64,000 nt of DNA from an uncultured Kiritimatiellota bacterium (lineage in GTDB: Bacteria > Verrucomicrobiota > Kiritimatiellia > RFP12 > UBA1067), in contig CAKTUI010000008.1 in assembly GCA_934621385.1 (NCBI GenBank), forward strand, positions 2,455 through 66,454, read 5' to 3'. The position numbers and the translations under genes are program-made. Below the pieces are notes generated by a model. The model made no database searches. It was not told the DNA's origin and worked only from the letters and a program-made list of their open reading frames with translations. Below, in pieces: positions 9,662 to 59,427 of the stretch (position 1 is its first letter; each line of letters opens with the position of its first letter).

Positions 9662-9729
9662 CCTCGGAGATGCGCTTCTCTCAGCCACCCGCCCAAAACC
9701 GCCGCGCCTGAGCCTACGCAACCAAATTG

Positions 9730-9863
9730 TCAATGCGGGCGAACAGAGGTCATGTTCCAGCCGCCGACCTTCCACGCGAACGGACGCGTGGGATGCTCAA
9801 CCGTCAGCACCTTCCTTTCGTCCAGGAGAAATGTAAAGAAATTGTCCGAGAGGAAATCCGGTT
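9730..9863 (-). pseudogene. Relic 3' end of a GH2 gene (diverged duplicate of 11464-11597)
   Basis: The minus strand translates to ...FLSDNFFTFLLDERKVLTVEHPTRPFAWKVGGWNMTSVRPH*. The intact GH2 C-terminus reads FFSDNYFALLPGERKVLTVEHPTHPFAWKVGGWNTAFVHPL*. By my hand alignment, 111 of 134 nt are identical. Confidence 0.7.
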
Positions 9864-11410: not shown

Positions 11411-11463
11411 CGATATGCAAGATGAAATGCCCCACGCAATGCCACCAACAATCAGACGACTTG

Positions 11464-19466: not shown

Positions 19467-19744
19467 GACGCTTGCTCGGGGGCTTGCGCGGCGGCTCGCC
19501 CGACCCGGATGCGGCAGCGGTCTCGCAACGCCTCGCGCGCTTAGACAAGCGGCTTCGCTGAGCCTGCCCTGCCTCGGCGGTTATCACTGGTTGCGGACGG
19601 AGACCTCTCCTACGGCTGCGAGCCGCACCGCACCTCTCGTGCGACCGCCGCGCTCACCCCTTCGCCCGAGAGGAGGGACAGGCTGGTACACAGGCCCACG
19701 CGGCAGATGGTTTTGCCGCGCCTGCCGTCTATCTGGCGCTTACA

Positions 19745-19945
19745 GAAGTCCTACTTGCAACTCTTGCGCGTTCGAACTGCAACTCGAAAGAGTTCTAAGT
19801 AGAAAACCACCCAGCGGCATGGCGAAACAAACTGCCGCGCCTGTTCACAATCTGTAATGACCAAGGGGAACATTTCCATTGTTCGCCTGCCCCGCTCCTC
19901 AATCGGACCCGAATTTCTTCCACGCCCTGTAAAGCGCGGCACTTT
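19745..19945 (+). repeat. Diverged, inverted copy (R3) of the repeat family
   Basis: The reverse complement carries aaagtgccgcgc ... ggtcat ... cttagaact ... gagttgcaagt in the same order as R1 and R2. It lies upstream of the plus-strand porin gene. Confidence 0.35.
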
Positions 19946-37603: not shown

Positions 37604-38149
37604 TTACCAATCCCACCTTTTTGGCCGCGCCCATTTCTCTCTAGGGGCATAACGCGCCGCATGGGGCAAGGCAATCCCGCCAAGGAGGTTGTTCAATTCC
37701 ACAAGTTCAATCGCATCCGGTTCTGCTCCATAACCGCACAGAGACTGATGCGACAGTGCAAATGCCGTAGCTAATACATGAAACATTTTATCATCAATGC
37801 TTAGGCGATCGTGCGCAACCAGTTCGGAGACCGTCATGACTTGCGAGAACCTATATTTGCAATTCTTGTTTGCACTTTCAACGGGCAGTCTTAAGCGATG
37901 GAAAATACTTCCACCACCAGAATAACAAATCGGTCTACCATCTAGTATCTGTTCACACAAGTTCATAAACGGCATAACGCGTATCAAGTCTTGATTCTCA
38001 TATTGCCCTCTCAGAATAGACATAAGATTATCAGCGTCCCCAAATGAGAAATGGAAAAGGGCACTGCGGCGGAAGTTGATTCCGTCGGCACAAAAGCCTT
38101 GATTTGAACGCGGACTGTTACTGGGGGGGGGGGGGTATTTTTTGCACAC
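37604..38149 (-). CDS. Hypothetical protein (181 codons as tracked); 5' end runs through a C13 tract
   Basis: A long ORF in an AT-rich segment with no recognised motifs. The tracked start is a GTG immediately before the homopolymer, so the true start and frame are uncertain. Confidence 0.4.
   Translation of the reverse strand: MCKKYPPPPSNSPRSNQGFCADGINFRRSALFHFSFGDADNLMSILRGQYENQDLIRVMPFMNLCEQILDGRPICYSGGGSIFHRLRLPVESANKNCKYRFSQVMTVSELVAHDRLSIDDKMFHVLATAFALSHQSLCGYGAEPDAIELVELNNLLGGIALPHAARYAPREKWARPKRWDW
38123..38135. repeat. Homopolymer G13 (C13 on the coding strand)
   Basis: Counted directly from the sequence. Confidence 0.95.
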
Positions 38150-38232
38150 AAGCCCGCCAACGCAAGATTTTGCGCCGCTACGCCCTCAACTGGACAAGCC
38201 ACAACTAAGCCCGACCCCACATCTCGTCCAAT

Positions 38233-38241
38233 AGTTTACCA
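38233..38241 (-). promoter_or_regulatory. Extended -10-like element TGGTAAACT inside R1
   Basis: Plus-strand agtttacca, conserved in R2. It parallels the TGGTATAAT promoters elsewhere in the window. Confidence 0.35.
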
Positions 38242-38362
38242 TAATCCACTTCCCCTGTGCGCAACAAAAGGCGCAGAAACTGCACATATAATGAGTCAGC
38301 AAGAAACGGAAAGACCGCTGGTGTTTCGCAGAAAGTGCCGCGCACGCGTCAGATTGTCGGGG

Positions 38363-38443
38363 GATGCGCATCTCCCGACCTTTGGGTTGCGCAAGTCGAC
38401 ATCCTTAGGTTGCGCAACCTAACACCCCCGGGATGCGCATCCC
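38363..38443. promoter_or_regulatory. Array of four TGCGCA-centred palindromes spaced 20-24 bp apart
   Basis: GATGCGCATC (38363-38372), TTGCGCAA (38387-38394), AGGTTGCGCAACCT (38407-38420), GGGATGCGCATCCC (38430-38443). Confidence 0.45.
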
Positions 38444-38715
38444 CCGCCCCTCCCCTTCGCCTTCGAAGGACGCATGGTCGTCTTTTGCCCTATCACCCAA
38501 ACCAACCGGGAAAACAAGCCATTATCAGTCAAATGCAAAGTGCCGCGCCTTCACAACGCATGCGCGGCGGTTTGAGACTTGGAACAAACGGTCATCTCGC
38601 GCCCAAAGCGGGAGGTGGCCGATGCGCAACCTGGAACTTCATGCCGTCCTAACTGGAACTCGTGCGAGTTGCAAGTCCAACTCCCAAAAGTCCCACGCTC
38701 AGAAGTGCCGCGAAC

Positions 38716-43715: not shown

Positions 43716-44843
43716 TCACCGCGCCCGACGACGCAAGATGCTTCTTAACGCACCCAGTATCGCATCCTCATCCCATTGCGTATTTTCAAGTCCAAACGTA
43801 ATGCGGATCGTGGACTCGGCAATCGCCTTCGGCACCCTAATCGCCTTGAGAACATGAGATACCTGCGTATTCTTCGAGTCACAGGCGGCACCCGTCGAAA
43901 CCGCGATACCCTTCATATCCAGAATATGCATCACTCCCTCAGCCGAATTGCCCGGAAACGCAACACTCACAAACCCCGGCAATCGTTTTGCGTCCGTTCC
44001 ACCAAGATAGACCACATTGGGAAAGAACGACCTCATCCCTTTGCAAAATCTTTCAGCAAGCCTATTCAGATGGACTGTATTCCTTGCCATATTTTCGCAG
44101 TTATACCGCAGAGCCGTTGCCATGCCGACGATTGATGCAACATTTTCCGTTCCCGCGCGAAGGCCGTTCTCTTGTTGCCCGCCATTTAGCAACGGTTCGA
44201 GTTTCATGCCCTTGCGAATATAGAGGAATCCGATGCCCTTGGGACCATTGAACTTATGTGCGCTCGCAGACAGAAAATCAACCCCCGCTTCCTGCACATC
44301 AATCGGGATGTGACCGACTGCCTGAACTGCATCGGTATGGAACAACGCTCCACGTTTATGTGCGAACTCTGAAAGCAAATGAATTGGATTGATTGTGCCT
44401 ATCTCGTTGTTGGCCATCATCACAGAGACAAGTCCAATCCCAGCCGTCCAGACCTTTGAAAGCCGCTCCGGCATGATGTACCCGCCACCATTACCAACTT
44501 TGGGGCGGACAAATATCACCTCGCGGCCTTTACGCGCTTCGCTTGCGGCGGCGTTTAGAATTGCGTGATGTTCATATGACGAAACAAGCAACCCGCCAGA
44601 AGAGCCCTTAATCACCCAATTGTCCGCTTCAGTACCACCACTCGTAAAGAATATCTCATCTGGTTCGGCATTGATACACTCGGCAATCGTCGCTCTCGCA
44701 TCCGCGACCGCCTTTTTCGCCGGTCTCGCCCATCCATGCAGACTTGACGGATTTCCGAAATCCTCCTTCAAGAATGGAAGCATCGCCTCCAACGCCTCTG
44801 GCATCAGAGGTGTTGTCGCGGCATGGTCGGCATAAACTTTCAT
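43716..44843 (-). CDS. Cysteine desulfurase (class V aminotransferase; NifS/IscS/DndA/SspA-like)
   Basis: PLP-lysine motif SAHKFNGPKGIGFLY and active-site Cys loop STGAACDS. Its ATG overlaps the stop of the upstream small ORF (ATGA). G+C is about 40-57% on sampled lines. Confidence 0.85.
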   Translation of the reverse strand: MKVYADHAATTPLMPEALEAMLPFLKEDFGNPSSLHGWARPAKKAVADARATIAECINAEPDEIFFTSGGTEADNWVIKGSSGGLLVSSYEHHAILNAAASEARKGREVIFVRPKVGNGGGYIMPERLSKVWTAGIGLVSVMMANNEIGTINPIHLLSEFAHKRGALFHTDAVQAVGHIPIDVQEAGVDFLSASAHKFNGPKGIGFLYIRKGMKLEPLLNGGQQENGLRAGTENVASIVGMATALRYNCENMARNTVHLNRLAERFCKGMRSFFPNVVYLGGTDAKRLPGFVSVAFPGNSAEGVMHILDMKGIAVSTGAACDSKNTQVSHVLKAIRVPKAIAESTIRITFGLENTQWDEDAILGALRSILRRRAR

Positions 44844-45370
44844 TGGTAAAATCCTTGATACATTCCCAATCCAATTTCTTCTTCAAGCAAATCGGAAATA
44901 CGTTGTTCAACATCCTGTGGGTAATGTGATACTGCCCATCGAAACATTCTACACGTATAAAAACTTTCAGGGAGTTGTCGAACAAATACTTCTGGTATAT
45001 CTTCTTCCGACGGCACATACTCGAATATGCCGCCTGTTACATCTATCTTCCAGTTCTCAAACTCCCAGTGATCTGTTGCTCCTTCACGTGGCAGAACAGC
45101 TATGTGTACATTGTGTGGATAATTTTGATGCTTCGCATAGCCATTCTTGGATACGCCACAGATATAGATGGCATCCCACGAATCTTGTGGAAATTCATCC
45201 ATGACAATCGTTTGTCCAGGCAAAAACTCTTTGTTAAGACGCGAGAACCGTTTGGAGTACTTACCCTTGATTGCGTTTGTGCAATGGTGCATAGGGTTGC
45301 ATCCATGAGCATACTTGGCGTACAGCCACATGAACTTGCTGCCATCGAAATTGTGAGTTAGCCGTATCAT
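44840..45370 (-). CDS. Hypothetical protein (176 aa)
   Basis: An uninterrupted ORF with ATGA overlaps at both ends. Very AT-rich. No motif recognised. Confidence 0.55.
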   Translation of the reverse strand: MIRLTHNFDGSKFMWLYAKYAHGCNPMHHCTNAIKGKYSKRFSRLNKEFLPGQTIVMDEFPQDSWDAIYICGVSKNGYAKHQNYPHNVHIAVLPREGATDHWEFENWKIDVTGGIFEYVPSEEDIPEVFVRQLPESFYTCRMFRWAVSHYPQDVEQRISDLLEEEIGLGMYQGFYQ

Positions 45371-45975
45371 TGGTTGCCATTCTTTGGAGGTTCTGGCGTA
45401 TAGAAAACAAGTCCTTCGCCTTGCTCGTTAAGCAATGAACAAGCTTCGTCTAACGTCTCATTATCGATATCATTCCATGTGTTCAAGTCTTGAAACTTGT
45501 CCATTAGGAAATGTTCGATGCCTGTGTAAGTTGTAAAGAAATGGATTTCATAGAAATTGCAAACGGGTATTAGGTTGATGAACCCATATAAGGAATTATT
45601 GACTTTATTTTCTATGCAATAAACAATGTCCTTTTTTACACTTGAAATATCGACAAATCTAGTCTCTTGACCATGCAGTTGTTTGGCAAATTCATCGTAA
45701 TCATTAAATAGACTCTCAATAGTCGCCAATGAAGTGCCTGCGACGCAATCCCAAAATGAAGTACTATTTACTACTTTTTGCAGAATTTCGCGAGCTATTT
45801 GGTCATTGATTCCGTTAAAACGATATAGAGGAAAGTCGGGAAAATTCCCCAATTCCACCCATATTCCCGATGAATCCATAACAGTAAATTGAACACCCAT
45901 ATCATAAGTTTTGATGATGTTGCCAATCGTCGGCTTTATTCTCGAAAGTAGATTGATTTTTTGCTCTCGTGTCAT
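45367..45975 (-). CDS. Hypothetical protein (202 aa)
   Basis: The start MTREQKINLL is preceded by GGAGGTG. No motif recognised. Confidence 0.55.
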   Translation of the reverse strand: MTREQKINLLSRIKPTIGNIIKTYDMGVQFTVMDSSGIWVELGNFPDFPLYRFNGINDQIAREILQKVVNSTSFWDCVAGTSLATIESLFNDYDEFAKQLHGQETRFVDISSVKKDIVYCIENKVNNSLYGFINLIPVCNFYEIHFFTTYTGIEHFLMDKFQDLNTWNDIDNETLDEACSLLNEQGEGLVFYTPEPPKNGNQ

Positions 45976-45979
45976 CTTA

Positions 45980-46504
45980 TTACACCTCCGCCACCCACGC
46001 TGGAATTGAATATGATTGCCCTGTTGTGGCAAGTAATTGCAAGGCCGCACCTATCCTATGATTCCCATCCAAGACATGGAATCGTCCCATTACAGGATAA
46101 ACAGCGACAGGGAGCTGATAGGTCCCGCTACGCTGAAGAATGGCGATGTGGTATTCCGTACTCTTTCTACAATAGTCATAATCGTATGTAGGATGTCTAA
46201 AGAATAACGTACCGTTATAATTTTGAAGCAGCCCATCGATGTCCGCTAAAGATTGTTGGGTTATATTGAATATGCTTGGTATGAATGATGCAGTTCGCCA
46301 TTTACAGGACGATTGCTCATGTAAGGACACTACAGAGAATATTCTATGCCAGGGCGTGTTGTATGTGAAATCCATGCATGAGTGAAATGGCCAATTGCCC
46401 ATGTCGTTAATGAGAGCCCTTATATACATATCGAACAACTGGTCTGGCATCCTTGAAAAGATGCCGCGCGCAACTGCTATATGCCGTTCTAAATGGTTGT
46501 CCAT
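45980..46504 (-). CDS. Hypothetical protein with a C-terminal ParB/Srx-like DGxHR motif
   Basis: QLPVAVYPVMGRFHVLDGNHRIGAALQLL resembles the ParB N-terminal / DGQHR-type (DndB-related) fold signature. Confidence 0.5.
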   Translation of the reverse strand: MDNHLERHIAVARGIFSRMPDQLFDMYIRALINDMGNWPFHSCMDFTYNTPWHRIFSVVSLHEQSSCKWRTASFIPSIFNITQQSLADIDGLLQNYNGTLFFRHPTYDYDYCRKSTEYHIAILQRSGTYQLPVAVYPVMGRFHVLDGNHRIGAALQLLATTGQSYSIPAWVAEV

Positions 46505-46727: not shown

Positions 46728-48215
46728 TTACGCCTCCTTCCGTATCTTGAGAGCCGGCAGATCTTTTCCCCTGTATTGCTCGTTCATAAGGCCCATCTGG
46801 TAGCGGATGGTATAACGCATCTTCATCGCCGGTCTAAAGCAATAACGCACAAAATCCTTCTCGGAGATGTCCGCCGGGGTGCGGACATTCGGGAATAGCA
46901 ATTTTATAAATGCCGTTGAAATGCGTTTGACCGCTTCAGTGTCGCGCTCGTCTGACCCGGACGGCACGTCAATCAATTCGTCAACAACGTGTCTATAGGA
47001 GCTATCGTCACGTAGCTGATGCAGAATCGCCGTAAAATACTCGGAGTTCAAAGCCCATCCGTCGATTTTGAGCGTACTGTTCATGCGTGGGATATTCCAT
47101 CCCTTAATAAAGCCGTGGAAGCGGTCAATCATCGCGGCATCTTGAAACAGTTTAGGTAGATTAGCAAACATATAGGCATAACCATCCTGCTTCATAATTT
47201 CAGGTGCGATGTTGCCGCACAAGACAAATCCGGAGTCCGCAGAGCTGGAGTAATTGCCAACCGAGAACGTCCCTTGCTCCAGATATCCCTGCATTACGCT
47301 CCCCATGCCATCCTCAAAGATCGTCTTTTGAATTTCATCCAAGACGATAAAGTCGTTTTGTCCGACGAGTCCAGACTCACGGCGTCCTGCATCATAGAAA
47401 AGTTTTGCGCGGGTCATCTTGTCGCTGGTGGAAAGCCAGCCATAGCGACTCACTTGCCCGAACAAGTAGGATTTTCCCGTCCCCATCGGAGCAAGCTCCA
47501 TCAAATTGAGGCGTTTTTCCGCAAATGGCAGCACTCGCGAAAGCATGGTCAATTTCATTATTTGCAGATCAGGAAGTTCTGCGTTCTCCGCTTTCGCAGC
47601 ATCATACCCCTCTGCCTTATAGTCAACCGCTCCGAGAATAATGTCAATCCATTCTTGGATCGAAAATTCATTACGTACGTCTTTGTAATAGTTCAAATCA
47701 ATGTCATACGGGCAGAAGTCCCGGAATGAGAGAAGCCTTATCTTACCGGGCATTTTAGGACGCGCCGTATCATCCGGCGGACGATATCCAAGCTCCAGCA
47801 TTCCCCACGTCTCATGCCCAGATGCCAACTTGCCTCTGCACTTGTCCCAGACATCAGCATCAATCATCGTCTCGCGATTCCGAAGACCAAAATCAGGCAA
47901 AGAGAAAGTCACTTCTCCAGTGACAACGTCTATGTTTACAACAATCTTAGCGAGTAGCTTGACGTGCTCAAAGCCAACCACGATTCTGTCTTTGATGCGC
48001 GTCCAGTCATCGTGTTTTGGTATGAATTCGTGGACAAAAGAAAGCATTTCTCCTGCGTCGAACACGCCGTCCGCATTCTCGAACCTTTGCAATAGCCAGT
48101 CGCGCATAAACGACGGCAACCCTATCGTCTTGAAGAGACTTGTCTGCGTCAAGTCCTTGAACACTGCCATCGACTCGAAGCACTTACGAAGTTTATCTGT
48201 GGTTTCCTGTGTCAT
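46728..48215 (-). CDS. brxL: BrxL-like ATPase, short form (no Lon-protease-like C-terminal domain)
   Basis: Walker A LAPMGTGKSYLF and Walker B FIVLDEIQ. The N-terminal region LPSFMRDWLLQRF resembles BrxL / TIGR02688-type proteins (from memory). Strong AAGGAGGT RBS. Confidence 0.65.
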   Translation of the reverse strand: MTQETTDKLRKCFESMAVFKDLTQTSLFKTIGLPSFMRDWLLQRFENADGVFDAGEMLSFVHEFIPKHDDWTRIKDRIVVGFEHVKLLAKIVVNIDVVTGEVTFSLPDFGLRNRETMIDADVWDKCRGKLASGHETWGMLELGYRPPDDTARPKMPGKIRLLSFRDFCPYDIDLNYYKDVRNEFSIQEWIDIILGAVDYKAEGYDAAKAENAELPDLQIMKLTMLSRVLPFAEKRLNLMELAPMGTGKSYLFGQVSRYGWLSTSDKMTRAKLFYDAGRRESGLVGQNDFIVLDEIQKTIFEDGMGSVMQGYLEQGTFSVGNYSSSADSGFVLCGNIAPEIMKQDGYAYMFANLPKLFQDAAMIDRFHGFIKGWNIPRMNSTLKIDGWALNSEYFTAILHQLRDDSSYRHVVDELIDVPSGSDERDTEAVKRISTAFIKLLFPNVRTPADISEKDFVRYCFRPAMKMRYTIRYQMGLMNEQYRGKDLPALKIRKEA

Positions 48216-48234: not shown

Positions 48235-50409
48235 TCAAAAGAAATCGTCCTTTTTAATTTGTGCGCCACCGCTCTTCACCACGAAACGCACATCGTTGAT
48301 TTTTGTATTCCCGTCATAAACAACCGCAACATGGTCACCTGCAGAAGGCTTGGGGATTCGGACAGTGTAGCGTCCCGTTTCATTGCCGTCGGCAATCGCT
48401 GCATAGCTGATTCCATCGAATCTGACAGAAGGCGACATCAATGTTGAGGCGCAGAACAGCTGAAGAGTTATTTCCGTATCGCGGAATGTTACCTTGAATT
48501 CGTCTTCCACAAGGCGTACATGAACATTCTTGTCGAGCAATTCAAATTCTATGACCGGCACTACCATTTCCTCCAATGTAGCACCTCCGTGGATTTCAAC
48601 ATCGCCTTTCCTGCCGCCTTTGAAACGGTCGTATCCAGCAAGAACGTGCCATTTCTCGTCATCACTTTCCGTAACACAAGCCGGAAGGACGCCATCGAAC
48701 TCGCTTTTCCGACAGCATCTTCCACCATGTTTTCCTTTCTCCGGCAATTCCCACACCGTTTCAGACTTGGAAATCACAGCAAGGCGAGTCGCTCCGTGAT
48801 CGCTTGTGAGAACAACCTTGCTGCCGGGCTTCTTGCGAAGTCGCATTGCTATTGCATTTATAGACTCCTCGACAACTATCAATTCATGCGGCAGTTCCGT
48901 GGCTGCACCAGTTGACGGCTCGTCGTATTTCTCAAAGTCACCATGCTTTATCTTGTCTAGTCTGGATACAGGAGGCATCTTTTCGCCCTGCCATTCATCA
49001 TAGAAAGAGCGATTGACGCTAGTTATGGAAGGTAATTTCGCCCTGGCAGGCGTGACTTTCAATTTAAGGCCAAGGCGCTCTGCGGCAGATTGAATAAAGC
49101 CAAGGAATTCACAGCCGAGAGCGTCTATCCAGCAAAGAGCAACGCCATTGGTGCCAATACTTTCAAGAACGGACTCGCGTGTCGGCAAAGTGAACTGCGG
49201 ACGGTCTTCGGCAAAATCACGAGCAGCATCCATGAAGCTAGGCTCAATTCGCCCTAATAATTTTTGCCGTTTATAATCCTGAAAGTACTTCGCAAGCACC
49301 TCCACGAACTCACCACTCGAAAAGGAAAATCCGCGCCAGTAGTTCCACATCGCTGGGTATACATTTTCCACAGACACAGGAACCTCTCCTGCGTCCACAA
49401 TCAGCCGTGTTATCTCCTCGCGCTCCACCTCTGTGCAGTCCGTCATGTAGCGGATGCGTTCCGATGGATTGGCAATCCGTCGTGATTCGCGGATGTACTC
49501 AGTCACATCAGCCTTGTCAAATTGCGGAACAATCTTTTTCCTTGCATCATAGAGCCGAGCAAAACGACCATCGTCAACTGAAACATCAAGGATTGCGCAG
49601 AGAAGATTTCTGTGCCACTCTGAATATTGCCTGGTTTTCGATATGGCAAATGCAATATACTGGTCGTCGCCAGTACCGTCTTCAAGGAATCTCAAGAGTG
49701 AATCCGGACTTGACAAGCTATCATCGCGAGCTCGCTCATCATTCAGGAATGCCGTCCATTGTTTTTCTGGGAACATTGTCTCCAGGACGGGACTTTGAGG
49801 ATGCCGTTCCTTATACACTTCATATGCGGAATCAATACGGCGACACCAGTTTGTGTTTAAGGGAACAACTGTCGTTATGGCAGTTATCGAATTATCGCAA
49901 CCGTCCTCAAGAATCCGCAAGAGCGCCCTAAAGCCATTTGCTTTTGCGTTCTTGATAAGGCCGTCTCGAAAAATACGTAGCGACCAATGTTTTTCGGATT
50001 TTGCGAAGGACACGCCTCTTCGGCCCAGTATTCGAGGATCGTTTCTTGACTCTTCTTCGATAAACTCATGCACGCCCCATACTGGTACGACAAGACGAAG
50101 GCTGTGCAAAGGAAGCCCAAATATCCATTTCTTCACTTCTCTGTCGCCAGAAAGCGCAGCGTATTCGCCAATGCCAAGAAGAATCGCCTTGCCCTCCATG
50201 TGTGTAAGCGTGTCGCCAAGAGCGTCCAAGTCTGGAAGCGCATCGGATGCTCGGCAGAAATCGCTGACACGTACCTTCTCGCATGAGGAAAGCGATGTGA
50301 CAAGCATTGATAGGTCTGTGGACGCATCAAACGCCACGAAAAACGGGTTAGTCGCACCATTCCCGTTCAGATATTCCTGCGCAGCATTGACAATATCCAT
50401 GATCATCAT
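48235..50409 (-). CDS. pglZ: PglZ alkaline-phosphatase-superfamily protein
   Basis: 724 aa with CWIDALGCEF and VVLTSDHGATRL motifs characteristic of the PglZ domain. ATGA overlap with brxC. Confidence 0.8.
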   Translation of the reverse strand: MMIMDIVNAAQEYLNGNGATNPFFVAFDASTDLSMLVTSLSSCEKVRVSDFCRASDALPDLDALGDTLTHMEGKAILLGIGEYAALSGDREVKKWIFGLPLHSLRLVVPVWGVHEFIEEESRNDPRILGRRGVSFAKSEKHWSLRIFRDGLIKNAKANGFRALLRILEDGCDNSITAITTVVPLNTNWCRRIDSAYEVYKERHPQSPVLETMFPEKQWTAFLNDERARDDSLSSPDSLLRFLEDGTGDDQYIAFAISKTRQYSEWHRNLLCAILDVSVDDGRFARLYDARKKIVPQFDKADVTEYIRESRRIANPSERIRYMTDCTEVEREEITRLIVDAGEVPVSVENVYPAMWNYWRGFSFSSGEFVEVLAKYFQDYKRQKLLGRIEPSFMDAARDFAEDRPQFTLPTRESVLESIGTNGVALCWIDALGCEFLGFIQSAAERLGLKLKVTPARAKLPSITSVNRSFYDEWQGEKMPPVSRLDKIKHGDFEKYDEPSTGAATELPHELIVVEESINAIAMRLRKKPGSKVVLTSDHGATRLAVISKSETVWELPEKGKHGGRCCRKSEFDGVLPACVTESDDEKWHVLAGYDRFKGGRKGDVEIHGGATLEEMVVPVIEFELLDKNVHVRLVEDEFKVTFRDTEITLQLFCASTLMSPSVRFDGISYAAIADGNETGRYTVRIPKPSAGDHVAVVYDGNTKINDVRFVVKSGGAQIKKDDFF

Positions 50410-53400
50410 TCCTTTGAAAGGATCGCAAGCCCTACATCAAGCGAATTAACGACAAGATCTACGAGGTACTGCTTTGCTTCATCCGCACTCATTGCCCTTA
50501 CTTTTCCGCGCACTCTCTCAGCACAGTTCAAGTTGTATTCGCTTTCGGCAAGTTTCTGGAGCGTTGCTTCAAGACGCGGATCGACAAGCCAGCTGTCTGG
50601 GTCTGCACTCAACTTGTTCAGTCGAGACCTAACGGACGCAAGGTCTGTCAGCACTACCGCATAGCGGCCGAGAACGCCGCGTCGGAATGCATCGTCAGCC
50701 TTTTCCCCGTCAAACCAACAAAACACTTCTGGGTGTACAGTAAAGAAATCGAGTGCCGCATCGACATTTGCAACGGACGATTCCTTGTTATTCAAAGCAC
50801 CTATTGCCTTACGGACGCCGTCCAGAAGTGGCGTCCCCTCTGCCGGCACCATAGCGAGAACTGGTGTTGCAAATTGCTTCGCCCATGCCGACGGAGTTGT
50901 CGTGCCGGTTTCTTCATTCCACAGCGATAGCAACTTTGTCCGTCCCTGTTGACTTTTAATTTCAGAGACCTTCTGGACGAGCATCTGCTCGTAGGTCGGC
51001 TTATCGGCAAGGAACGACGATTTGTCCAACCCAGTAAGATAAAGATCATCCATCTCCTGTGTGTCAAGCCCTGAAAGTTGCTCGCTGTAAGTTGCCTTGA
51101 ACAAAGCAAGGCATCCTTCAAGCATATCACGGTTGACATCACCCATATCGGTGATTTCACGGAAGAACGCATCTCGCCTGTCATTCTGTTCCAGCCGCCC
51201 CCCAGATGCAATGTCCTTTAGAAGGCCAAGGAAGGTCTTGGATTGCGGCTTAAGTGCCACAAGAGTGGCACAGGGGATACGTATCGTGCGCGTTTTATCC
51301 CGCCACGCTTCCATACACTCCCAGAAAGAATTCACCGGCGTTATGAATCCACGCTTGGACGATTCCGCAACTATGCGGTAGTCCCTCAAAAGTGCGCGTA
51401 TTTCATTTTCTCCAGTCTCACGATGCCAGAGCCATGCGCCGTCAGTACCGAAACAACGACGGACATCAGCAAGAGGGTCGGAAGCGTTTATTTCTTCCGC
51501 CGTCTTTCGGAAAAGCCCATCATCAAATTCGTCAAGCCAAGCGTTCATTGCTTTAGTGGCATTTTCCTTTGTGAACAGAGCCGAAAGCCTGGCCTCCACA
51601 CCGGGATCACCTGCTGCCATGCGTCCAATCTCGGTTGCAACGCCGGAGAGCGTGGCACCTTTCTGATTGGCCGGATTGGTGAGGAGAGTAAATTGCTCGA
51701 TGTAGCGTTCCGAACCGACGGACTCAGGCAATGCCTCGAAACACCACAAGGGGTATTGGAAGTCGCGTATTCGCACGGCCAAATCATGCGCCACAATGTC
51801 TATCGAGGCATTCTCCCCAAGGTTGAACACCGCCTTTGCAAGATCTGCGAACCGCCGCTGTTCCTCTGTCAGAACTCCGATGTATGCTTCGTGATATCTT
51901 CCGCTACCAGTGCCGAGAACCTTCTTAAAACAGGCGAGAATCGCCTCTGTCATGTTCGCCACAGTGAGAGGCGGACTTTCTCCGTCTCGGACGAAGCGAT
52001 AATCCCCGCCCACATATTCTTTGAGGAGATATCCCACAAGAAAACCGTGCAACGCAGTAGGCATGAATCCAGCATCGAAGAGTGTTTCTATAATTTCGCC
52101 AAACTCGACTCTGCCTTCACCGCCAGACTTGAATGCGTATTTGAGCTTCTGCTCTACCTTTGACTTGATCTTGGAGATTGTCTGTGTAGGCGCGACTTTC
52201 CAATAATCCACTTTGTCTTTAACAGAGCCTATAAGGGCGTTTTCTGATGCGGCATCCATCTTGCCGCCTTTCTCCCCATTCGGGAGATGCCCAAGGCCAC
52301 CATACACGCCGGCGGACACCTCGGCTTTTGTCGCTTGGTTGAACTGAGTGTCTTTCAAGCCACGCTCAAACTCAAGCGCAAGTGGATACTTTTCAAGTAC
52401 CGACAAACGCATCTCTTCTCCAACCTCAGAAGCCCCGTGGCAAACCACACCAGTTGCATTTCGCTTCGTCCGCACGGTAAACGCACCAGTTGCAATTTTG
52501 TCTCTCCATGCGGAAAGTATCTTCTCCGCCTCGGATAATGCATTGTTGGACTGTTGCGCGTCTTTGCGAGCATACCAATTTGCTCTGGCCTTGTATTCAG
52601 CCCACTTTGCGAAATCGCCATCATCCAATTCCACGGAAGTCGCATCGATGAATACTACATTGCCGCTTCTCGGATCTGCGAGTGCCTTGCTTATCGCCTC
52701 TTTTGCAGCAACTGCATCCAGACTGTTCCGGCCAACCACAATCATGGCTCGCATCCTATAGTTCTTGGCATCTTGAGCCAAGAGCTGTCCAAGAATCTGC
52801 GAGAACGAATCCGGACCAGCAAGGCGTATGTCGAATCTCTCCTCCAATGGACGCGACAGCCGAAGCACCTCTTCGCGTTGCCAATCCTTCAGCAGTTCCT
52901 TCGTCTTGGTTGTATGGAGGTAATTCTCCTTGAGTTTTTCAATTTCCTGCAAATCGCGACCACCGGTGGCCATTGGTGCCTGATAGACACGCTTCCCATT
53001 CACCTCTTCCACAAAAAGAATCTTGTCGGAGTTTGCAAGCTTGTTGGCAAGTGTTATTCCCGTGCCGCTTTCGAGACCCTCCACGCCCTCGAACGCAAGG
53101 CGAAGATTCTCCTCTGTCGCAAGAAACTCCGGCGGATTGTTGAGTTTCTTTGCAAGCGCCTGAAATATGAGAATAGTTTTCAGAACACGCTTCTCGGCAG
53201 AAACGAGCTTGCTGGATTTGTCGGGATACACTTCGAGAATCGCCCTTACTTGTGCATCTAGATTGCTCTTCCCGGTTTCGCCGGTACCTCTCAGCGTCTT
53301 GCCAGTCTCGTAGAAGTAGTCCCAAAGCAGATCAACGCCTAGCACGTCACCGTTCTCTGGGGAATGGTTCTTTATGTACCACTTAAACGCACGGGCATCC

Positions 53401-54620
53401 TCTTCCGCAGCAATAAACGTGAACATACTCCGTTGATTAGAGTCAAAAAGCGCGGCGATGTTCTTGAGAGCCAATGCGGCATATGGATGAAAAGGCAGCA
53501 TAGCACGAAATACGCCCTCATCAACGTCCTTAAGCATCTTCGCAATCTTCCGCCGCGGTTCCTCCATGCGCTCGTTCAAATCGTCAGAAAGCGCATCCCA
53601 CTCCTGTTTGAAAGCAGGCTTCACCTTCAGCGCATCGCCGATCAGCTCAAATGCAATGTTTTCAGGAAGGCTTATCTCCATCGTCGGCTTGAAACGGTCG
53701 ACAATAATTTGTGCAGAATTGTCGTTTTCCGGCAGGAACGATGTCGTGAAATGGGTTACAATCACAAGATTGAATCTAGTCAAGCCGGAAAGTTCCGCAA
53801 GCGACTGCAATGTATCGAGCTTCGTCTTGTTGTTCTTAAAGAACGCAGAGAACTCATCCCACACAAGTATGAGATGCAGATTGTTCTTCTCTACAGTTTC
53901 GCGTATCCAGGATGCAAGGTCTTCCTTTGAGAATCGTAGCGCTGTTATACCCTTGTCCTTGGCGAGACGACGGATTTCCTTAAGCAGATCGTCCGCCATA
54001 CCGCTTCCCTTTAGTGTCGCAAGCACATCGTCCGCAGACTTGCCGGCGAAGCATCCCTTATGGCAATATGGCGATTCCTTAATAAGCGCGTTGAAATAAG
54101 CTCGTTCTGTATTGCCCTCCAACCACTTGGCAATGCCACCACGCAGGGTCGCACCCGCATCGTATGGTACGCCGGAGTCCTCCAGCGCCTTTGAAAGACT
54201 TGAAAAGACGGCCTCAACAAGGTCTTCCGGGCCGGATATTGCATCAGACCCGTGCCGAGCGGCAACAACGATTTTTCTCGCCTTCCGATGACCGGCGAGT
54301 TTCTTTTTAAGGTCGCCCTCTGCTTTGAGAGGCGCATAATCATCGAAGTATGTGTTGAAATCAACATCGCTGCAGGTCAGAAGGCTACGAAGCGTCCACG
54401 TCACCTGGCTCTTGCCTGTACCATACGCGCCATGAACCCAAATGGAGTGTTTGTCCATCTCGCTGCCGCGCGCAAGCATCTTCTCAAGACGCTTCAAAAG
54501 CGCGACGAAGGTCTTGTGGGGGTATGTCGCTTTCCATCCGTCCGGATGCGCATCAAATGTGGCCTGTGTAATCTCTGGCGGATTGTACTTAAGCTGGAAG
54601 TAATCGCTGTAGTTGGACAT
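50406..54620 (-). CDS. brxC: BrxC/PglY-like P-loop ATPase (1404 aa)
   Basis: Walker A VHGAYGTGKSQ and Walker B LILVWDEF near the N-terminus of a very long protein. Start set to the ATG at 54620, 9 nt after AGGAGG. The tracked start at 54641 overlaps brxP. Confidence 0.75.
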   Translation of the reverse strand: MSNYSDYFQLKYNPPEITQATFDAHPDGWKATYPHKTFVALLKRLEKMLARGSEMDKHSIWVHGAYGTGKSQVTWTLRSLLTCSDVDFNTYFDDYAPLKAEGDLKKKLAGHRKARKIVVAARHGSDAISGPEDLVEAVFSSLSKALEDSGVPYDAGATLRGGIAKWLEGNTERAYFNALIKESPYCHKGCFAGKSADDVLATLKGSGMADDLLKEIRRLAKDKGITALRFSKEDLASWIRETVEKNNLHLILVWDEFSAFFKNNKTKLDTLQSLAELSGLTRFNLVIVTHFTTSFLPENDNSAQIIVDRFKPTMEISLPENIAFELIGDALKVKPAFKQEWDALSDDLNERMEEPRRKIAKMLKDVDEGVFRAMLPFHPYAALALKNIAALFDSNQRSMFTFIAAEEDARAFKWYIKNHSPENGDVLGVDLLWDYFYETGKTLRGTGETGKSNLDAQVRAILEVYPDKSSKLVSAEKRVLKTILIFQALAKKLNNPPEFLATEENLRLAFEGVEGLESGTGITLANKLANSDKILFVEEVNGKRVYQAPMATGGRDLQEIEKLKENYLHTTKTKELLKDWQREEVLRLSRPLEERFDIRLAGPDSFSQILGQLLAQDAKNYRMRAMIVVGRNSLDAVAAKEAISKALADPRSGNVVFIDATSVELDDGDFAKWAEYKARANWYARKDAQQSNNALSEAEKILSAWRDKIATGAFTVRTKRNATGVVCHGASEVGEEMRLSVLEKYPLALEFERGLKDTQFNQATKAEVSAGVYGGLGHLPNGEKGGKMDAASENALIGSVKDKVDYWKVAPTQTISKIKSKVEQKLKYAFKSGGEGRVEFGEIIETLFDAGFMPTALHGFLVGYLLKEYVGGDYRFVRDGESPPLTVANMTEAILACFKKVLGTGSGRYHEAYIGVLTEEQRRFADLAKAVFNLGENASIDIVAHDLAVRIRDFQYPLWCFEALPESVGSERYIEQFTLLTNPANQKGATLSGVATEIGRMAAGDPGVEARLSALFTKENATKAMNAWLDEFDDGLFRKTAEEINASDPLADVRRCFGTDGAWLWHRETGENEIRALLRDYRIVAESSKRGFITPVNSFWECMEAWRDKTRTIRIPCATLVALKPQSKTFLGLLKDIASGGRLEQNDRRDAFFREITDMGDVNRDMLEGCLALFKATYSEQLSGLDTQEMDDLYLTGLDKSSFLADKPTYEQMLVQKVSEIKSQQGRTKLLSLWNEETGTTTPSAWAKQFATPVLAMVPAEGTPLLDGVRKAIGALNNKESSVANVDAALDFFTVHPEVFCWFDGEKADDAFRRGVLGRYAVVLTDLASVRSRLNKLSADPDSWLVDPRLEATLQKLAESEYNLNCAERVRGKVRAMSADEAKQYLVDLVVNSLDVGLAILSKE

Positions 54621-54633
54621 TACTGTTTCCCTC

Positions 54634-56910
54634 CTATACATTGAACAAGGCTATGACGTTAGCGGGAGTCTTGTCATCGGCGAGACGAACAAGCTCCAGG
54701 TCGTGTGTAGTGGTAAACGTAACGAAATCTGGATTTGTCCGTGAAAGCCCATTCAGGAGCGCCTCCATTTCGTCGCGCGCGAGCGCAAATATCTGCGCCG
54801 GGCTAACCCCCTCCGCCTCAACCGTGAAGTCCATAAGGCGTGAGAGAGGAAACTCCCAATATCCGCCACACTTTTCAGCGAACTTGTAGAGCGCATAAAG
54901 CATGACAAGCGGCGACGGCGCAACCGTCTTCGTTCGAGTGAGCGAAACGATGTCCTGTCCCTTTGATACGACCCGACCAAAGTGGAAGCGCGTACTTAGC
55001 GGTATGTTGCACAGCCTTCCGAATGCGCGAATAACCGACATCACCCCATCTGGCTTAAGCCCAGTGACAGCTATCATGTCGTATAGTTCCTGACGGGGGT
55101 ATTCGCGCCCCACATCCATATTCCGCACATACCATTCGATTTGTGGATTGTCATATGAGAGGTTGGTGAGAATCAAACCCCATGTATCCTCTGCGTTCAT
55201 GCCTATCCGCCTTGCTAATTCAAAGAATGGAGTTGCCTTATTCTTTGCAAGCAGTCCGGCATCTGAAAGGAAGCGTTTAAATTTAGTTATCTGCATAGGC
55301 CCCAGCGAGTTGTTTGACACAAAGTCAGAACCTCGGGAAAAGAAATCCGTGACCCATTCTGGCTTCGGGGCGTGCGTAGCGAATGTGTTTATGCTTTTCA
55401 TGTCTATTCTCTCCAGTGTTGCCTTCTTAAGTGAATCGGCTCGATAGCAGCCTTTCTCAATTTCATGGCATAGTCCGCAATGTATGCAATTGTCAATGTG
55501 TAGCCCATTCTTAAAAGAGAGCGCACCTGAACGACAATTCGCCTCACATTCACCGCATCCAACGCAATATGATGCCTTATAAAAACATTGTTTGAGCCTC
55601 CTACCAAGAGAGGTCTTCGTGAGTGCGGACGGATACGATACTATCAGCACACCATCTGATTCTGTGGCTTCTAAATCAACAGGTCCATTTAGTGTCTTGA
55701 TCCATTCTCGCCAGTCTGTTGTTGGATTAAGAAGGCGAAGTGTCGTACGGCCATCTTTGGTTGCTTCTTGTATCTTCTCTTCGTTACCCTTAATGTCCCT
55801 GCCGTTCTTTCGAGCGACCCATCCACATTTCGCAATATATTCATTTGTGTCAGGGCAACTAATGCTACTCTTTACGTAATTAATAAATCGGTCAACGCCA
55901 TCCTTATAGGCAGTATGCTCAAAATAATCAGAACGGCCACCTGCACCGAGGGGACAAAAAAGACACCCTACGCGCACCATTCCCTTTACATAGGCACCGT
56001 TAATGAGTAATTGACGCGAGAAAATATAAATCCAAACCTCTGCGCTTGACCATTCCTGCATCGCATTGAAGGAGTATTGCCCCATCTGTTTCTTACTAAA
56101 ATTCAGATAGTCATACTGTGAGCGAGCATCACTCTCATGTCCTCTCACTCCAACAAAAGCCATTCCCGTATAGTCTCTTTTCCCGAGTATCTCGCGGATT
56201 TTGAGCGTCTGAGGGACGGACTTATGGACGGTACAGCACCATCTAAGAGCATGTGATGGCGGTCCGAAGAGCCGCCACGATTCCTCTGGCGTAAAACAGG
56301 ACTTTGCACGGTAAAACGCGATACCATCCGCCTTGCATCTCGCTTCCACAGCCTCAACGGCTTTATAGGTGTCAGGGAATTCCATCCCCGTATCGCCAAA
56401 CACAACCATGAATGCGGTGCGGGGCAATGCGCGACGGACGAGTTCCAGAAGCGCAATCGAATCTTTGCCGCCCGAAAACGCCACATGGAAACAATCAAGC
56501 TTCTTTTCGTATTTGCGATAGATGTCGTATATCTTCTTGACGGTGAGCGTTTCCAGCGCCTCAATACGGAGACGGTTTTTTGCGATCATCGCCTCAACAT
56601 CCACGGGGATGAGTGTTGTTCCCTTTGGAAGTATCTCTTTGCCGGCCTCGTCCCTCAAGAGTTCAATTTCTGGTTTTACATAGAGGGAGCCGCCATTCGT
56701 CTTGGCTACCTTTTGACCGCGATACCAATAAAAATTCGACTCGGCCCAGAGGTACGGGGCGTCACTCGTGTTGTCATATTTCCAGAAATCTCCAAACCCC
56801 AACAAGTCGAGTTCTGCCGCCCATACTGGTCTGGGTTCTTTTGAGAATTCCGAAAGCGAATCCGCAAGTAGCAGGCCTCCTGTTTCTGGATCATGTGAAT
56901 ATGTGTACAT
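54634..56910 (-). CDS. brxP: BrxP-like PAPS-reductase / PP-loop ATP pyrophosphatase with an Fe-S cluster region and a ~250-aa C-terminal domain
   Basis: PP-loop AFSGGKDSIALLEL. PAPS-reductase-family body. Ferredoxin-like CVGCGECEANC...CIHCGLCHEIEKGC. The real start MYTYSHDPETGG at 56910 overlaps the upstream stop (TAATG). Confidence 0.8.
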   Translation of the reverse strand: MYTYSHDPETGGLLLADSLSEFSKEPRPVWAAELDLLGFGDFWKYDNTSDAPYLWAESNFYWYRGQKVAKTNGGSLYVKPEIELLRDEAGKEILPKGTTLIPVDVEAMIAKNRLRIEALETLTVKKIYDIYRKYEKKLDCFHVAFSGGKDSIALLELVRRALPRTAFMVVFGDTGMEFPDTYKAVEAVEARCKADGIAFYRAKSCFTPEESWRLFGPPSHALRWCCTVHKSVPQTLKIREILGKRDYTGMAFVGVRGHESDARSQYDYLNFSKKQMGQYSFNAMQEWSSAEVWIYIFSRQLLINGAYVKGMVRVGCLFCPLGAGGRSDYFEHTAYKDGVDRFINYVKSSISCPDTNEYIAKCGWVARKNGRDIKGNEEKIQEATKDGRTTLRLLNPTTDWREWIKTLNGPVDLEATESDGVLIVSYPSALTKTSLGRRLKQCFYKASYCVGCGECEANCRSGALSFKNGLHIDNCIHCGLCHEIEKGCYRADSLKKATLERIDMKSINTFATHAPKPEWVTDFFSRGSDFVSNNSLGPMQITKFKRFLSDAGLLAKNKATPFFELARRIGMNAEDTWGLILTNLSYDNPQIEWYVRNMDVGREYPRQELYDMIAVTGLKPDGVMSVIRAFGRLCNIPLSTRFHFGRVVSKGQDIVSLTRTKTVAPSPLVMLYALYKFAEKCGGYWEFPLSRLMDFTVEAEGVSPAQIFALARDEMEALLNGLSRTNPDFVTFTTTHDLELVRLADDKTPANVIALFNV

Positions 56911-58817
56911 TAGCGTTTCTCCAATTCTTTCATTCTGGAAACTACCGCCCCGACGGTTTTTGTCGAGCGACGCAGAACACATTGCGTCGCAACGAGAAAG
57001 TCTCCAACTTCTTCCACATCTGCCGCGACACCGCAACGAAGAGCTATGGTAGCAAAGGCATCCTCCGCGCTCCATTCGCAGTTCATGCACGGAACGACTG
57101 CACCCGATACATCTCTTGCAGGAACAGACGGTGACACAAGGCGAAATCCTGTGCTGGCTCGACGCAAAAACGCCTCAAGCAGAAACTCATTCCAAGCGAA
57201 CCCAGGAACCGCAGGAAAGTCCGCCAGATTGCCAAATGCACCGAAAGGCATTATGCATCCTTCACATATGTCCGAAATTGATTTTTCAATCGACGAAACA
57301 TCAAATGTGATCAGCGCCGGCGAAACAAAACATTCCCGGTCGACACGCACCATTTCTTCATGTGCGGTCTTCAGTGCTAACCACGGTGCAATGTTGTATT
57401 CTTTTGCGACTGTCTCTAGTTGTTCAAGCGACACATCAGGCCTTTCGCGCAAGAATGCATGAAGAGGAATCTGTCCATCTATACTTGCACCTTTTGCACA
57501 TACGATCTGCCCGTGAATGTCGAATTGCTCTGATAAAAAACGCTGGAAGAATGAGCGTCGAAGCGCACTATCCACCAACCTTCGGTCGTTCATGGCTGCG
57601 CTGTCATTGAGACACAATTGAGAAAGGGAGAAAAATCCCTCGGCTTTGATTGCGGTTTCACATTGCGATTTCCCGCGAGAGACCTCCGCATCATCGAATT
57701 CGATCCGTGATACGATGGCATACGAATTCTTACCGTTCCTGACCAAATCGCTCAACCTCCTACACAGACTACGAATAAACGCCATGTCCACATAGGGCAC
57801 TCGCTTAGAAACCACACTTATGTCAATAACAGGACCCCTTTGTGACATGATAATTGAATTAAAGTGCTGAGTAATCGACCCCGCCCACTTGGGCACGAAG
57901 CATTCCCCTTCAATCTGATATGTATCTTGCGCCTCCCGCATAATTGCCTCTCGAAACATTTCGGGAGAGATGATGCCAATTTGCATAAGTTCTTGTCCAT
58001 GGAACTCCATCAGGCGCGAAAACTGAAATATGGAGTATCCTTGTCCGACAAGTCTTTCGATAAGCTTACGCCACCCGCCATCTTTGGATGATGGCCGAGG
58101 AAACACTTTCCCGTCGTGAATAACGCCTATTCTCGGAAAGACAGAATTGAAGTCAAAGTCCTTCGGCAAATCCTCGTCGAAATACTCGTGGTAAAACTTG
58201 CGGATTTTATTACGGTCGATTATCGAACTGGGTCTGACTCCGTTTGGGAACTCCGACTCCAACAATTCAGCAATCTGATTTTCATAGGGGAATTCATTAC
58301 CATCCCAATCGCATCGCCCCGGCATCGCTTCCGTCCTTTCCTCTCCATCGGCCGAATGGGGCGGACATAGGAGACCTTCGCTTTCTTTCGCGTCACTTTT
58401 CTCCGCTGAACGAAAATCTCTGTATGTGACCCGGACATCATCGTTGGACAAATTGCACCACTCAATAAGCTTGAGGGCTCGCAAGAAAGGAGTGCTACCC
58501 GACCCATTCAAGTCGATGTAACAATCCCGATCAATCTGATAAGGGTTGGCCATCCCGTACCGCGTTGTCCGCAACCACCCCAGATCCTTGGTTCTGATGA
58601 GCCGCTGCAATTGCCACCCCTTGAAGGTCCACAGGTGCTTGGCAAGCGAAACGAGGACATCATTCGCAGAGTTCACCGGAACCGTCTTCCCGATGATTTG
58701 CAAAGCGCTCAGTTGCGCCCTTGGGGGCATTTTCTTCACTGCGTCAACCAGTGGGCAGATATAGGATAGGCCTGCTGTTGAACAGCCATTGGATTCCGAA
58801 AACTCACAATCAGGCAT
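56910..58817 (-). CDS. Hypothetical 635-aa protein, first gene of the BREX-like operon
   Basis: An uninterrupted ORF with RBS GGAGGA 10 nt upstream of the ATG. Its stop overlaps the brxP start. I recognise no catalytic or binding motif. Confidence 0.7.
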   Translation of the reverse strand: MPDCEFSESNGCSTAGLSYICPLVDAVKKMPPRAQLSALQIIGKTVPVNSANDVLVSLAKHLWTFKGWQLQRLIRTKDLGWLRTTRYGMANPYQIDRDCYIDLNGSGSTPFLRALKLIEWCNLSNDDVRVTYRDFRSAEKSDAKESEGLLCPPHSADGEERTEAMPGRCDWDGNEFPYENQIAELLESEFPNGVRPSSIIDRNKIRKFYHEYFDEDLPKDFDFNSVFPRIGVIHDGKVFPRPSSKDGGWRKLIERLVGQGYSIFQFSRLMEFHGQELMQIGIISPEMFREAIMREAQDTYQIEGECFVPKWAGSITQHFNSIIMSQRGPVIDISVVSKRVPYVDMAFIRSLCRRLSDLVRNGKNSYAIVSRIEFDDAEVSRGKSQCETAIKAEGFFSLSQLCLNDSAAMNDRRLVDSALRRSFFQRFLSEQFDIHGQIVCAKGASIDGQIPLHAFLRERPDVSLEQLETVAKEYNIAPWLALKTAHEEMVRVDRECFVSPALITFDVSSIEKSISDICEGCIMPFGAFGNLADFPAVPGFAWNEFLLEAFLRRASTGFRLVSPSVPARDVSGAVVPCMNCEWSAEDAFATIALRCGVAADVEEVGDFLVATQCVLRRSTKTVGAVVSRMKELEKR

Positions 58818-58944
58818 ACGCGCACAATCCTCCAGGACTCTTTACGCTACCCTCAGAAATAAACCGCCAAGACCCATCCCCAAGCCAAGGACAGGCCTGC
58901 ACCAAGCAAGCCAAAAGCCTTGATTTTGAGCGTGGGCTGTTACT

Positions 58945-58959
58945 GGGGGGGGGGGGGGG
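58945..58959. repeat. Homopolymer G15 (C15 on the operon strand) in the predicted 5' leader
   Basis: Counted directly. It lies 128 nt upstream of the ATG at 58817. Confidence 0.95.
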
Positions 58960-59057
58960 TATTTTGGGCACACAAGCTCACCAGCGCAAGATTTTGCGCC
59001 GTCACGCCCACAATTGGGCAAGTCGAAACTAAGCCCGACCCCATCATCTCGCCCAAT

Positions 59058-59066
59058 AGTTTACCA
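59058..59066 (-). promoter_or_regulatory. Extended -10-like element TGGTAAACT inside R2 (candidate operon promoter)
   Basis: Plus-strand agtttacca, conserved with R1. The implied leader is ~230 nt. Confidence 0.35.
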
Positions 59067-59323
59067 TAATTCACATCCCCTGTGCTCAACAAACGGCACA
59101 GAAATTGCAAAATAAAGCGAGTCGGCACAAAAGAAAAAGAGAACTGGCGATTCGCAGAAAGTGCCGCGCCTTCACAACGATTGCGCGGCGGTTTTTAAGA
59201 CCCAGAACGAATGGTCATTTCGTGTCCAAAGCGGAAAAGGTTTGCCAAGCAACTTAGAACTTCATTCCATCCCAACTGGAACTCGTGCGAGTTGCAAGTC
59301 CAACTCACAAAAGTTCCGTGTTC

Positions 59324-59418
59324 AAAATCCCCCTGCCTGACTTGCAATTTACCGCTCGCACCCTCTCCCAAGAAGAGGGTGCAGGCAGGGGCGCGGCGGA
59401 CGCAAACCGCCGCGCCCC
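59324..59418 (-). terminator. Nested GC-rich hairpins downstream of trpA, the outer one followed by a T run
   Basis: Hairpin 1 is GGGGCGCGGCGG/CCGCCGCGCCCC (59388-59418). Hairpin 2 is CACCCTCT/AGAGGGTG (59359-59381). The outer pair is CCCCTGCCTG/CAGGCAGGGG, followed by ATTTTG on the minus strand. Confidence 0.5.
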
Positions 59419-59427
59419 TTGGTTGGC

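Follow-up and report, generated by a model that had tools for sequence, protein, structure and literature searches.

We report an uninterrupted run of 15 cytosines (C15) that is part of a non-coding promoter/leader cassette of ~260 nt, termed module B here, which is present in two copies in the 64,000-nt stretch of DNA that was analysed (hereafter the window): the first copy, with the C15 tract, lies 3′ of trpA and 5′ of a type 4 BREX operon, and the second, with a C13 tract, lies 3′ of mnmE and 5′ of a 139-aa orphan gene. Going by sequence features, the reading that we put first, while holding it to be somewhat short of probable, is that the run is a slippage-prone leader tract tuning the mRNA output of whatever cargo follows it. 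That the tract of the cassette works as a stochastic expression switch is credible but unproven.

The run reads as G15 on the forward strand (58945-58959) and as C15 on the minus strand, that of the operon, where its context is GCTTGTGTGCCCAAAATA-C15-AGTAACAGCCCACGC (58959-58945). By base composition, runs of 15 or more G are expected about 6e-5 times per 64 kb in this window (57% G+C), and its only homopolymers longer than 7 nt are this G15 and the G13 of the second cassette copy (38123-38135). Both the C15 and the C13 runs exceed the threshold for a simple-sequence contingency locus, which for slippage-competent G/C repeats is about 9 nt or more without interruption. The C15 tract ends 128 nt upstream of the ATG (58817) of the first operon gene, which codes for a 635-aa protein. 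The original prediction of an unbroken 15-G run, long enough for slippage, 128 nt 5′ of the first ATG and downstream of a −10-like element was thus borne out in each of these parts: the run is real and far above chance, and the −10-like element is TGGTAAACT at 59066-59058.

The elements of module B follow one another in the order GCGCGGCACTTTCTGCGAA, TATGGTAAACT, the GCGCAAAATCTTGCGC hairpin, AAAATA-Cn-AGTAACAG and CAAGGCTTTT. Copy 1 (58911-59169, minus strand) extends from GCGCGGCACTTTCTGCGAA to CAAGGCTTTT and ends ~35 nt past the tract, with cargo-specific sequence from there on; copy 2 (38091-38343, minus strand) lies between mnmE and the orphan gene (37604-38023), with its extended −10 at 38233-38241 and its C13 tract (minus strand) at the same cassette position as C15. 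Past CAAGGCTTTT the two copies are unrelated, one leading into the BREX operon and the other into the orphan gene. Among the four copies recovered by the survey described below, conservation within the cassette is highest between the −10 and the tract, with 86-96% pairwise identity, as against 76-92% upstream of the −10 and 27-49% beyond the cassette. The tract remains unbroken despite flank divergence of 4-22%, depending on the segment, and in the long-tract copies the 33-38 nt 3′ of it are conserved at 84-91% across different cargo. Both the extended −10 and a small hairpin in the leader, GCGCAA-AATC-TTGCGC (58984-58999, minus strand), are invariant in all four copies.

On the upstream side, the stops of trpA (59428) and mnmE (38716) are each followed by another element, module A. 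Its copy 1 (59170-59340, minus strand) forms the flank of a hot spot, contains a long imperfect hairpin (GGAACTTTTGTGAGTTGGACTTGCAACTCGCACGAGTTCC) and is found 3′ of trpA in all strains examined, and its copy 2 (38537-38712, minus strand) lies directly 3′ of the mnmE stop. A 13-bp perfect hairpin directly 3′ of the trpA stop (59387-59419, minus strand) is likely the trpA terminator. After mnmE, modules A and B are separated by an insert of ~200 nt (38344-38536, minus strand), which is not found in the BREX copy and is present in L025 (7447-7678), L029 (4007-4212) and L018; its three to four GGTTGCGCAACC-type palindromes resemble an operator array. Another palindrome, CTGTGCC-N9-GCACAG, occupies the −35 position of the cassette promoter, with a similar motif in L022 (6985-7012). 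The motif GCGGCACTT, mostly in the form GCGCGGCACTT, occurs 13 times window-wide against 0.8 expected (e.g., at 59159-59169, 38333-38343 and 38538-38548); some of its sites are coding (Ala-Ala-Leu) and some lie in the intergenic hairpins of the cassette. Further, the module A hairpin recurs a third time, in diverged form (63%), at 19728-19806, and a dispersed 136-nt repeat (84%) is found at 9727-9862 and 11461-11596, as well as in L018 and L022. The sole inverted repeat flanking module B that an inverton test brought up is a 9-nt pair not conserved in the other copies, and no direct repeats or att-like sites were found flanking the island. A phage origin of the cassette was looked for in the phage collection and IMG/VR, where it had no match; pattern scans of JGI metagenomes found nothing, and a tRNA/tmRNA search returned none.

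The 611-nt spacer between trpA and the BREX operon contains a single TGNTANNNT, in the form aattaTGGTAAACT (59066-59058), which belongs to the extended −10 TGGTAAACT (59058-59066, minus strand) and stands in an aTTTa context. This extended −10 fits the recurrent promoter consensus of the organism (TGGTATAAT; aTTaTGGTATAAT): TGNTATAAT is found at eight sites of the window, as compared with ~0.7 by our own estimate, mostly as aTTTaTGGTATAAT, in intergenic positions and usually preceded by aTTTa, and the alternative cargoes at the trpA hot spot carry TGGTATAAT or TGATATAAT promoters of their own. In gut Akkermansia, Cappable-seq has likewise located a TATAAT box at −10 (PMC4782308). As the extended −10 is the only recognisable promoter, the tract would lie within the predicted 5′ UTR; from its position we infer a transcription start site (TSS) at ~59051, counted from which the tract would span about +93 to +107 and the start codon would follow at ~+235, behind a 5′ UTR of ~234 nt. 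A generic sigma-70 scan of the locus found no promoter on either strand. Located 98-112 nt 3′ of the −10, the tract is outside any ORF (the short upstream frame that crosses it is taken up below), and on the operon strand it is not spanned by a sigma-70-like site. A promoter-spacer switch for the operon promoter is excluded by this position, the tract being downstream of the −10 and not between −35 and −10.

At the RNA level, the predicted fold of either leader is not significant (z = +0.3 and −0.4), RNAalifold on the four copies returned one GC/GU/AU pair only and no clean compensatory change, Rfam gave no match in the window at the gathering score and only chance-level ones at E<=1, and a search between the tract and the ATG found neither a terminator nor an attenuator. 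What the tract does alter is base composition: in 78-nt windows the C/G ratio exceeds 1 (up to 2-2.4) only around it, with 0.3-0.7 in the rest of the leader, and in the variant with a C5 tract it never exceeds 1. Hence, an effect at the level of the leader is to be favoured. The Vienna G4 model shows steps at 11 and 15, with the change from a two-layer to a three-layer quadruplex falling exactly at G15, a result that is indicative only.

The comparative evidence comes mainly from human-gut metagenome contigs with 95-97% nucleotide identity to the window over the trp genes, which implies that they are from the same species; a MAG in GTDB is 94.9% identical, and among the GTDB genomes searched there is only one true cassette match, L025. 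In the sample ERR7738598, the mnmE and trpA proteins encoded on contigs L001 and L032 are identical to those of the window. These sequences mark the site 3′ of trpA as a defence hot spot, at which module A is always present and is followed by at least five different cargoes: type II restriction-modification (RM) genes, a type I RM system with Fic, unknown genes of 632/666 aa, an 86-aa gene with DUF4143, and BREX4. After mnmE, other strains have module A and not module B. Our nhmmer survey for module B recovered four contexts only: copy 1 of the window (after trpA, C15, cargo BREX4); copy 2 (after mnmE, C13, cargo the 139-aa orphan gene); L025 (after trpA, C15, a different cargo); and L029/L031 (after trpA, C5), where the sequence continues as GTTTTAGGGG and on to an 86-aa gene. 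In L029/L031 the homology to the other cassettes stops at the tract, with the blast alignment ending at 58955. The same promoter cassette thus exists with a C5 version, which makes the long tract an add-on to a working promoter module.

Comparison of tract length across the related bins and contigs shows that it varies: 5 in L029/L031, 13 in copy 2, 15 in copy 1, 15 in L025 and at least 11 in L002/L003. As read from these assembled sequences, the tract is polymorphic in length within the species, given trp genes that are 95-97% identical. Both members of the orthologous pair formed by copy 1 and L025 have 15, and such an exact C15 in two diverged genomes could indicate a stable length. Six contigs of other samples contain the same BREX operon, with a first gene that is 90% identical or more, and none of them crosses the tract: L002 and L003 begin inside it (C11+AGTAAC), and L004-L007 begin 13-52 nt downstream of it, so that all six of these independent short-read contigs of the BREX locus end at the tract or no more than 52 nt downstream. 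As a sign of length heterogeneity these breaks are only suggestive, and they could stem from the two-copy repeat or from homopolymer sequencing failure instead. Since the tract and the two-copy cassette break short-read assemblies at the control region of the operon, MAG-based surveys usually miss them. The tract as a conserved feature of BREX4 was also considered and rejected: five further BREX4 operons (L048-L052; first gene 54-72% identical) have other upstream regions, with neither module B nor a homopolymer. Beyond these loci, the order of two core blocks differs between strains, being trp operon, cassette, BREX island, Fic, Na/H exchanger, mnmE, cassette and parB in the window, and Na/H exchanger, mnmE, module A, 204-aa gene, DUF456, trp operon and cassette in another strain (L018 and L029, which are one contig, ERZ27270442:k99_125286). 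The repeated A/B modules may mediate such rearrangement.

The operon itself is a type 4 BREX gene set, comprising BrxP (2e-231), BrxC/PglY (2e-201), PglZ (1e-90) and BrxL (6e-190) in PADLOC, with Pfam matching the PAPS_reduct and BrxL domains; a search for a methyltransferase or PglX among the ORFs at 42.5-58.8 kb had no match, and it is this lack together with the presence of BrxP, BrxC, PglZ and BrxL that identifies the set as type 4. All its genes are on the minus strand: that of the 635-aa orphan protein (56910-58817) comes first, followed by brxP, coding for the PAPS-reductase domain protein of type 4 BREX (54634-56910; PADLOC, Pfam), brxC/pglY (50406-54641; PADLOC), pglZ (48235-50409; PADLOC, Pfam) and brxL (46728-48215; PADLOC, Pfam). 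To our knowledge, there is no experimental study of type 4 BREX. The 635-aa protein has no match in Pfam, NCBIfam, PADLOC, PHROGs or the PDB sequences; its AlphaFold (AF2) model (pLDDT 86.5) predicts a tandem winged-helix array and finds structural matches only among such arrays (UFL1, SelB, Dcc1 and STK19). It has 47 homologues, in which the N-terminal ~28% is variable, and, judging from the modelled fold, it may be an undescribed nucleic-acid-binding component of BREX4. The island (~43.5 to 59.3 kb) has ~49% G+C versus ~62% in its flanks. Past BrxL and three orphan genes, in a stretch of ~40-46% G+C, lies a gene for a DndA/SspA-like cysteine desulfurase (43716-46504, minus strand; 4e-117), which along with the DndC-like BrxP hints at a sulfur-based DNA modification module. 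The brxP gene is a mosaic between strains, L003 being 94.6% identical to the window and then 70-77%, and L004 90% and then 98%; such alignments suggest exchange of a specificity region.

Against this background, the leader-level reading can be spelled out as follows. A slippage-prone repeat forms part of a reusable promoter/leader cassette that borders variable defence cargo on its upstream side, and this cassette is found at two hot spots of a human-gut Verrucomicrobiota species, one 3′ of trpA and the other 3′ of mnmE. Transcription from the extended −10 would take in the C15 run ~93 nt into a 5′ UTR of ~234 nt, and replication slippage would change the length of the tract heritably and reversibly. 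Length would then act on the leader, affecting elongation or termination of the transcript or else its stability: as the only stretch with C>G in a G-rich leader, the C run might serve as a Rho-loading-type site, and the G run of the template might form an obstacle to RNA polymerase. The outcome would be graded or bimodal mRNA levels of the downstream cargo, here the type 4 BREX operon, with neither uORF coupling nor promoter spacing as the mechanism. Slippage within populations, and any effect of length on expression, are steps that we infer. The specific mechanism, be it Rho or the obstacle, is improbable in the form given. In a sharper version length may act through a threshold, as modelling would have G15 on the template strand as the shortest run for a three-tetrad quadruplex, or else the C run may nucleate Rho loading. 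The most general version, in which module B is a portable phase-variable cassette at defence hot spots that exerts stochastic ON/OFF or rheostat control over any cargo recombining downstream of it, is one that we regard as rather unlikely. Against a switch of any of these kinds speaks the distance of the tract from both promoter (~90 nt) and start codon (128 nt), with no obvious sensitivity to single nucleotides.

Nearly as likely as the leader switch, and thus a serious possibility, is that the tract is a neutral hypermutable run at a recombination junction, which may slip but has no regulatory role and is kept by expansion-biased slippage at the boundary where cargo is exchanged. The cassette homology of L029/L031 ends exactly at the tract, a fact that fits a by-product of the recombination junction equally well; in the long-tract copies the boundary between cassette and cargo is only ~35 nt past the tract; the trpA hot spot has received at least five different cargoes; and no structure, terminator or conserved uORF links the tract to a mechanism. 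However, the run is uninterrupted over 13-15 nt in three diverged copies, for which neutral substitution in a single pair at ~13% flank divergence would give an expectation of about 0.87^13 = 0.16, and the 33-38 nt past it are conserved along with it across different cargo. Further, no other run longer than 7-8 nt was found in the window or in ~50 related loci (~300 kb), apart from one contig-end artefact.

Two further explanations we consider very unlikely. In the first of these, the G run would be the spacer of a weak forward-strand antisense promoter (cTGtta, then CT+G15 as a 17-nt spacer, then TATTTT), from which a length-switched antisense RNA would oppose the cassette promoter and leader. 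TATTTT does follow the G run directly in all three long-tract copies, with TGTTTT in the C5 variant; G15 would make a spacer of 17 nt and G13 one of 15 nt; and conservation within the cassette is highest in the segment that the putative antisense RNA would cover. But the site falls below the threshold of the promoter scan run on both strands (3/6 and 4/6 matches, with no TG extension), and the promoters of this organism appear to use an extended −10 without a recognisable −35.

In the second, which has equally little probability, the length of the tract would set the frame of a leaderless or near-leaderless uORF, one frame of which would end at a TGA overlapping the operon ATG and thereby allow re-initiation, with the operon coupled ON. 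The original prediction had pointed to a frame (59128-58940) that crosses the tract and stops directly after it at the present length, and that with one C fewer would stop at a TGA inside ATGCCTGA. A script varying the run length confirmed this arithmetic: the frame ends at a TAA directly after the tract at C15, C12 and C18, at the TGA within ATGCCTGA at C14, C11 and C17, and 24 nt before the ATG at C13 and C16. With its annotated GTG start (59128) the frame would begin 5′ of the −10, which leaves only the ATG at 59047 as usable, giving a uORF from there to the TAA at 58940 (58940-59047, minus strand; MMGSGLVSTCPIVGVTAQNLALVSLCAQNTPPPPQ and stop). Besides the correct geometry of copy 1, it is in favour of coupling that this ATG is ~4 nt from the predicted TSS, and that ~10% of the TSS of gut Akkermansia belong to leaderless transcripts (PMC4782308). 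The proposed translational coupling itself nevertheless finds no support, as the uORF does not run through in the paralogous copy 2, where a 1-nt indel gives ATG TGG GGT CGG GCT TAG, closing the frame after five codons and before the tract; the coupling geometry thus belongs to one copy and not to the element. Nor is there a signature of purifying selection, the uORF changes between copy 1 and L025 being three non-synonymous to one synonymous; at the present GC content, chance alone would produce open frames of ~40 codons about one time in four; and the operon ATG is preceded, at 11 nt, by a GGAGG of its own. The tract as N-terminal coding sequence was another candidate: the GTG frame of copy 2 (C13) enters the 139-aa gene, which is treated as chance, the frames of copy 1 all being stopped before the ATG.

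That the run or its length is an artefact of assembly or sequencing, against which the original prediction had warned, is scarcely credible, for although length calls of homopolymers are error-prone and the related contig L006 ends in a spurious C12 where L004 has C6, the run is internal to its contig with conserved flanks and is seen in both cassette copies of the window, in an independent MAG (L025, as C15) and at the start of two more contigs (L002 and L003). An artefact is thus excluded for the presence of the run, and the warning stands for its exact length, which is only as reliable as a short-read consensus. The C12 of L006 (3904-3915) is at the contig terminus within brxP, where homopolymers of the window do not exceed 7 nt, and is probably a poly-G read-end artefact; terminal homopolymers of Logan contigs are unreliable.

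Should the leader-switch reading be correct, the defence hot spot would carry its own stochastic switch for any system landing there. Bet-hedging at the population level would then be supplied by the locus and not by the defence system, which would help explain the carriage of costly or self-toxic defences in a lineage of gut commensals. Among known systems, the promoter-spacer homopolymer switches of the Bordetella fim and Neisseria porA/opc type, where slippage changes transcription, also have a C/G run near a promoter. In those, it lies between −35 and −10, whereas here it is ~90 nt downstream of the −10. Two systems come closest as precedents for graded control. In Moraxella catarrhalis, the mRNA level of uspA1 is graded between high and low by the length of an upstream G(n) tract (PMC7302503); as here, the tract is a G/C run upstream of the ORF and outside the spacer of the promoter hexamers. 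The uspA1 tract, however, has 6-12 nt, is 29 bp from the ORF and serves an adhesin gene, whereas the present one has 13-15 nt, is 128 nt from the ORF and belongs to a cassette shared by unrelated cargo, with an effect that is a candidate one. The G-repeat in the leader of Helicobacter pylori tlpB, target of the sRNA RepG, provides for post-transcriptional tuning (PMC8295292) and resembles our tract in being a variable homopolymer in an mRNA 5′ leader; it differs in requiring a complementary sRNA and in being a G-repeat in the RNA, the RNA tract here being C. In gut Verrucomicrobiota, poly-G slippage and phase variation have been demonstrated for the 9G tract of Akkermansia muciniphila Amuc_1413 (PMC13055324), and long tracts were noted in the Akkermansia genome paper (PMC3048395); the Amuc_1413 tract is intragenic, of 9 nt, and acts by frameshift, in contrast to the intergenic one of 13-15 nt described here.

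Finally, there are well-known examples of defence genes with homopolymer contingency switches, among them Pgl/BREX, in which a G tract within pglX/brxX is toggled by slippage (PMC4365076, PMC6326788). It was to these that the original prediction had appealed; the operon is indeed a bona fide BREX operon, and the likeness of a homopolymer associated with a defence system of the BREX superfamily holds, but it amounts to an analogy only, since the known tracts lie within the methyltransferase ORF and act by frameshift, whereas the present one is non-coding, its operon has no PglX, and homologous BREX4 operons occur without a tract. What sets our case apart is a non-coding run deep in a 5′ leader, located in a cassette that is common to two hot spots and several cargoes, with a type 4 BREX system devoid of PglX as its cargo.
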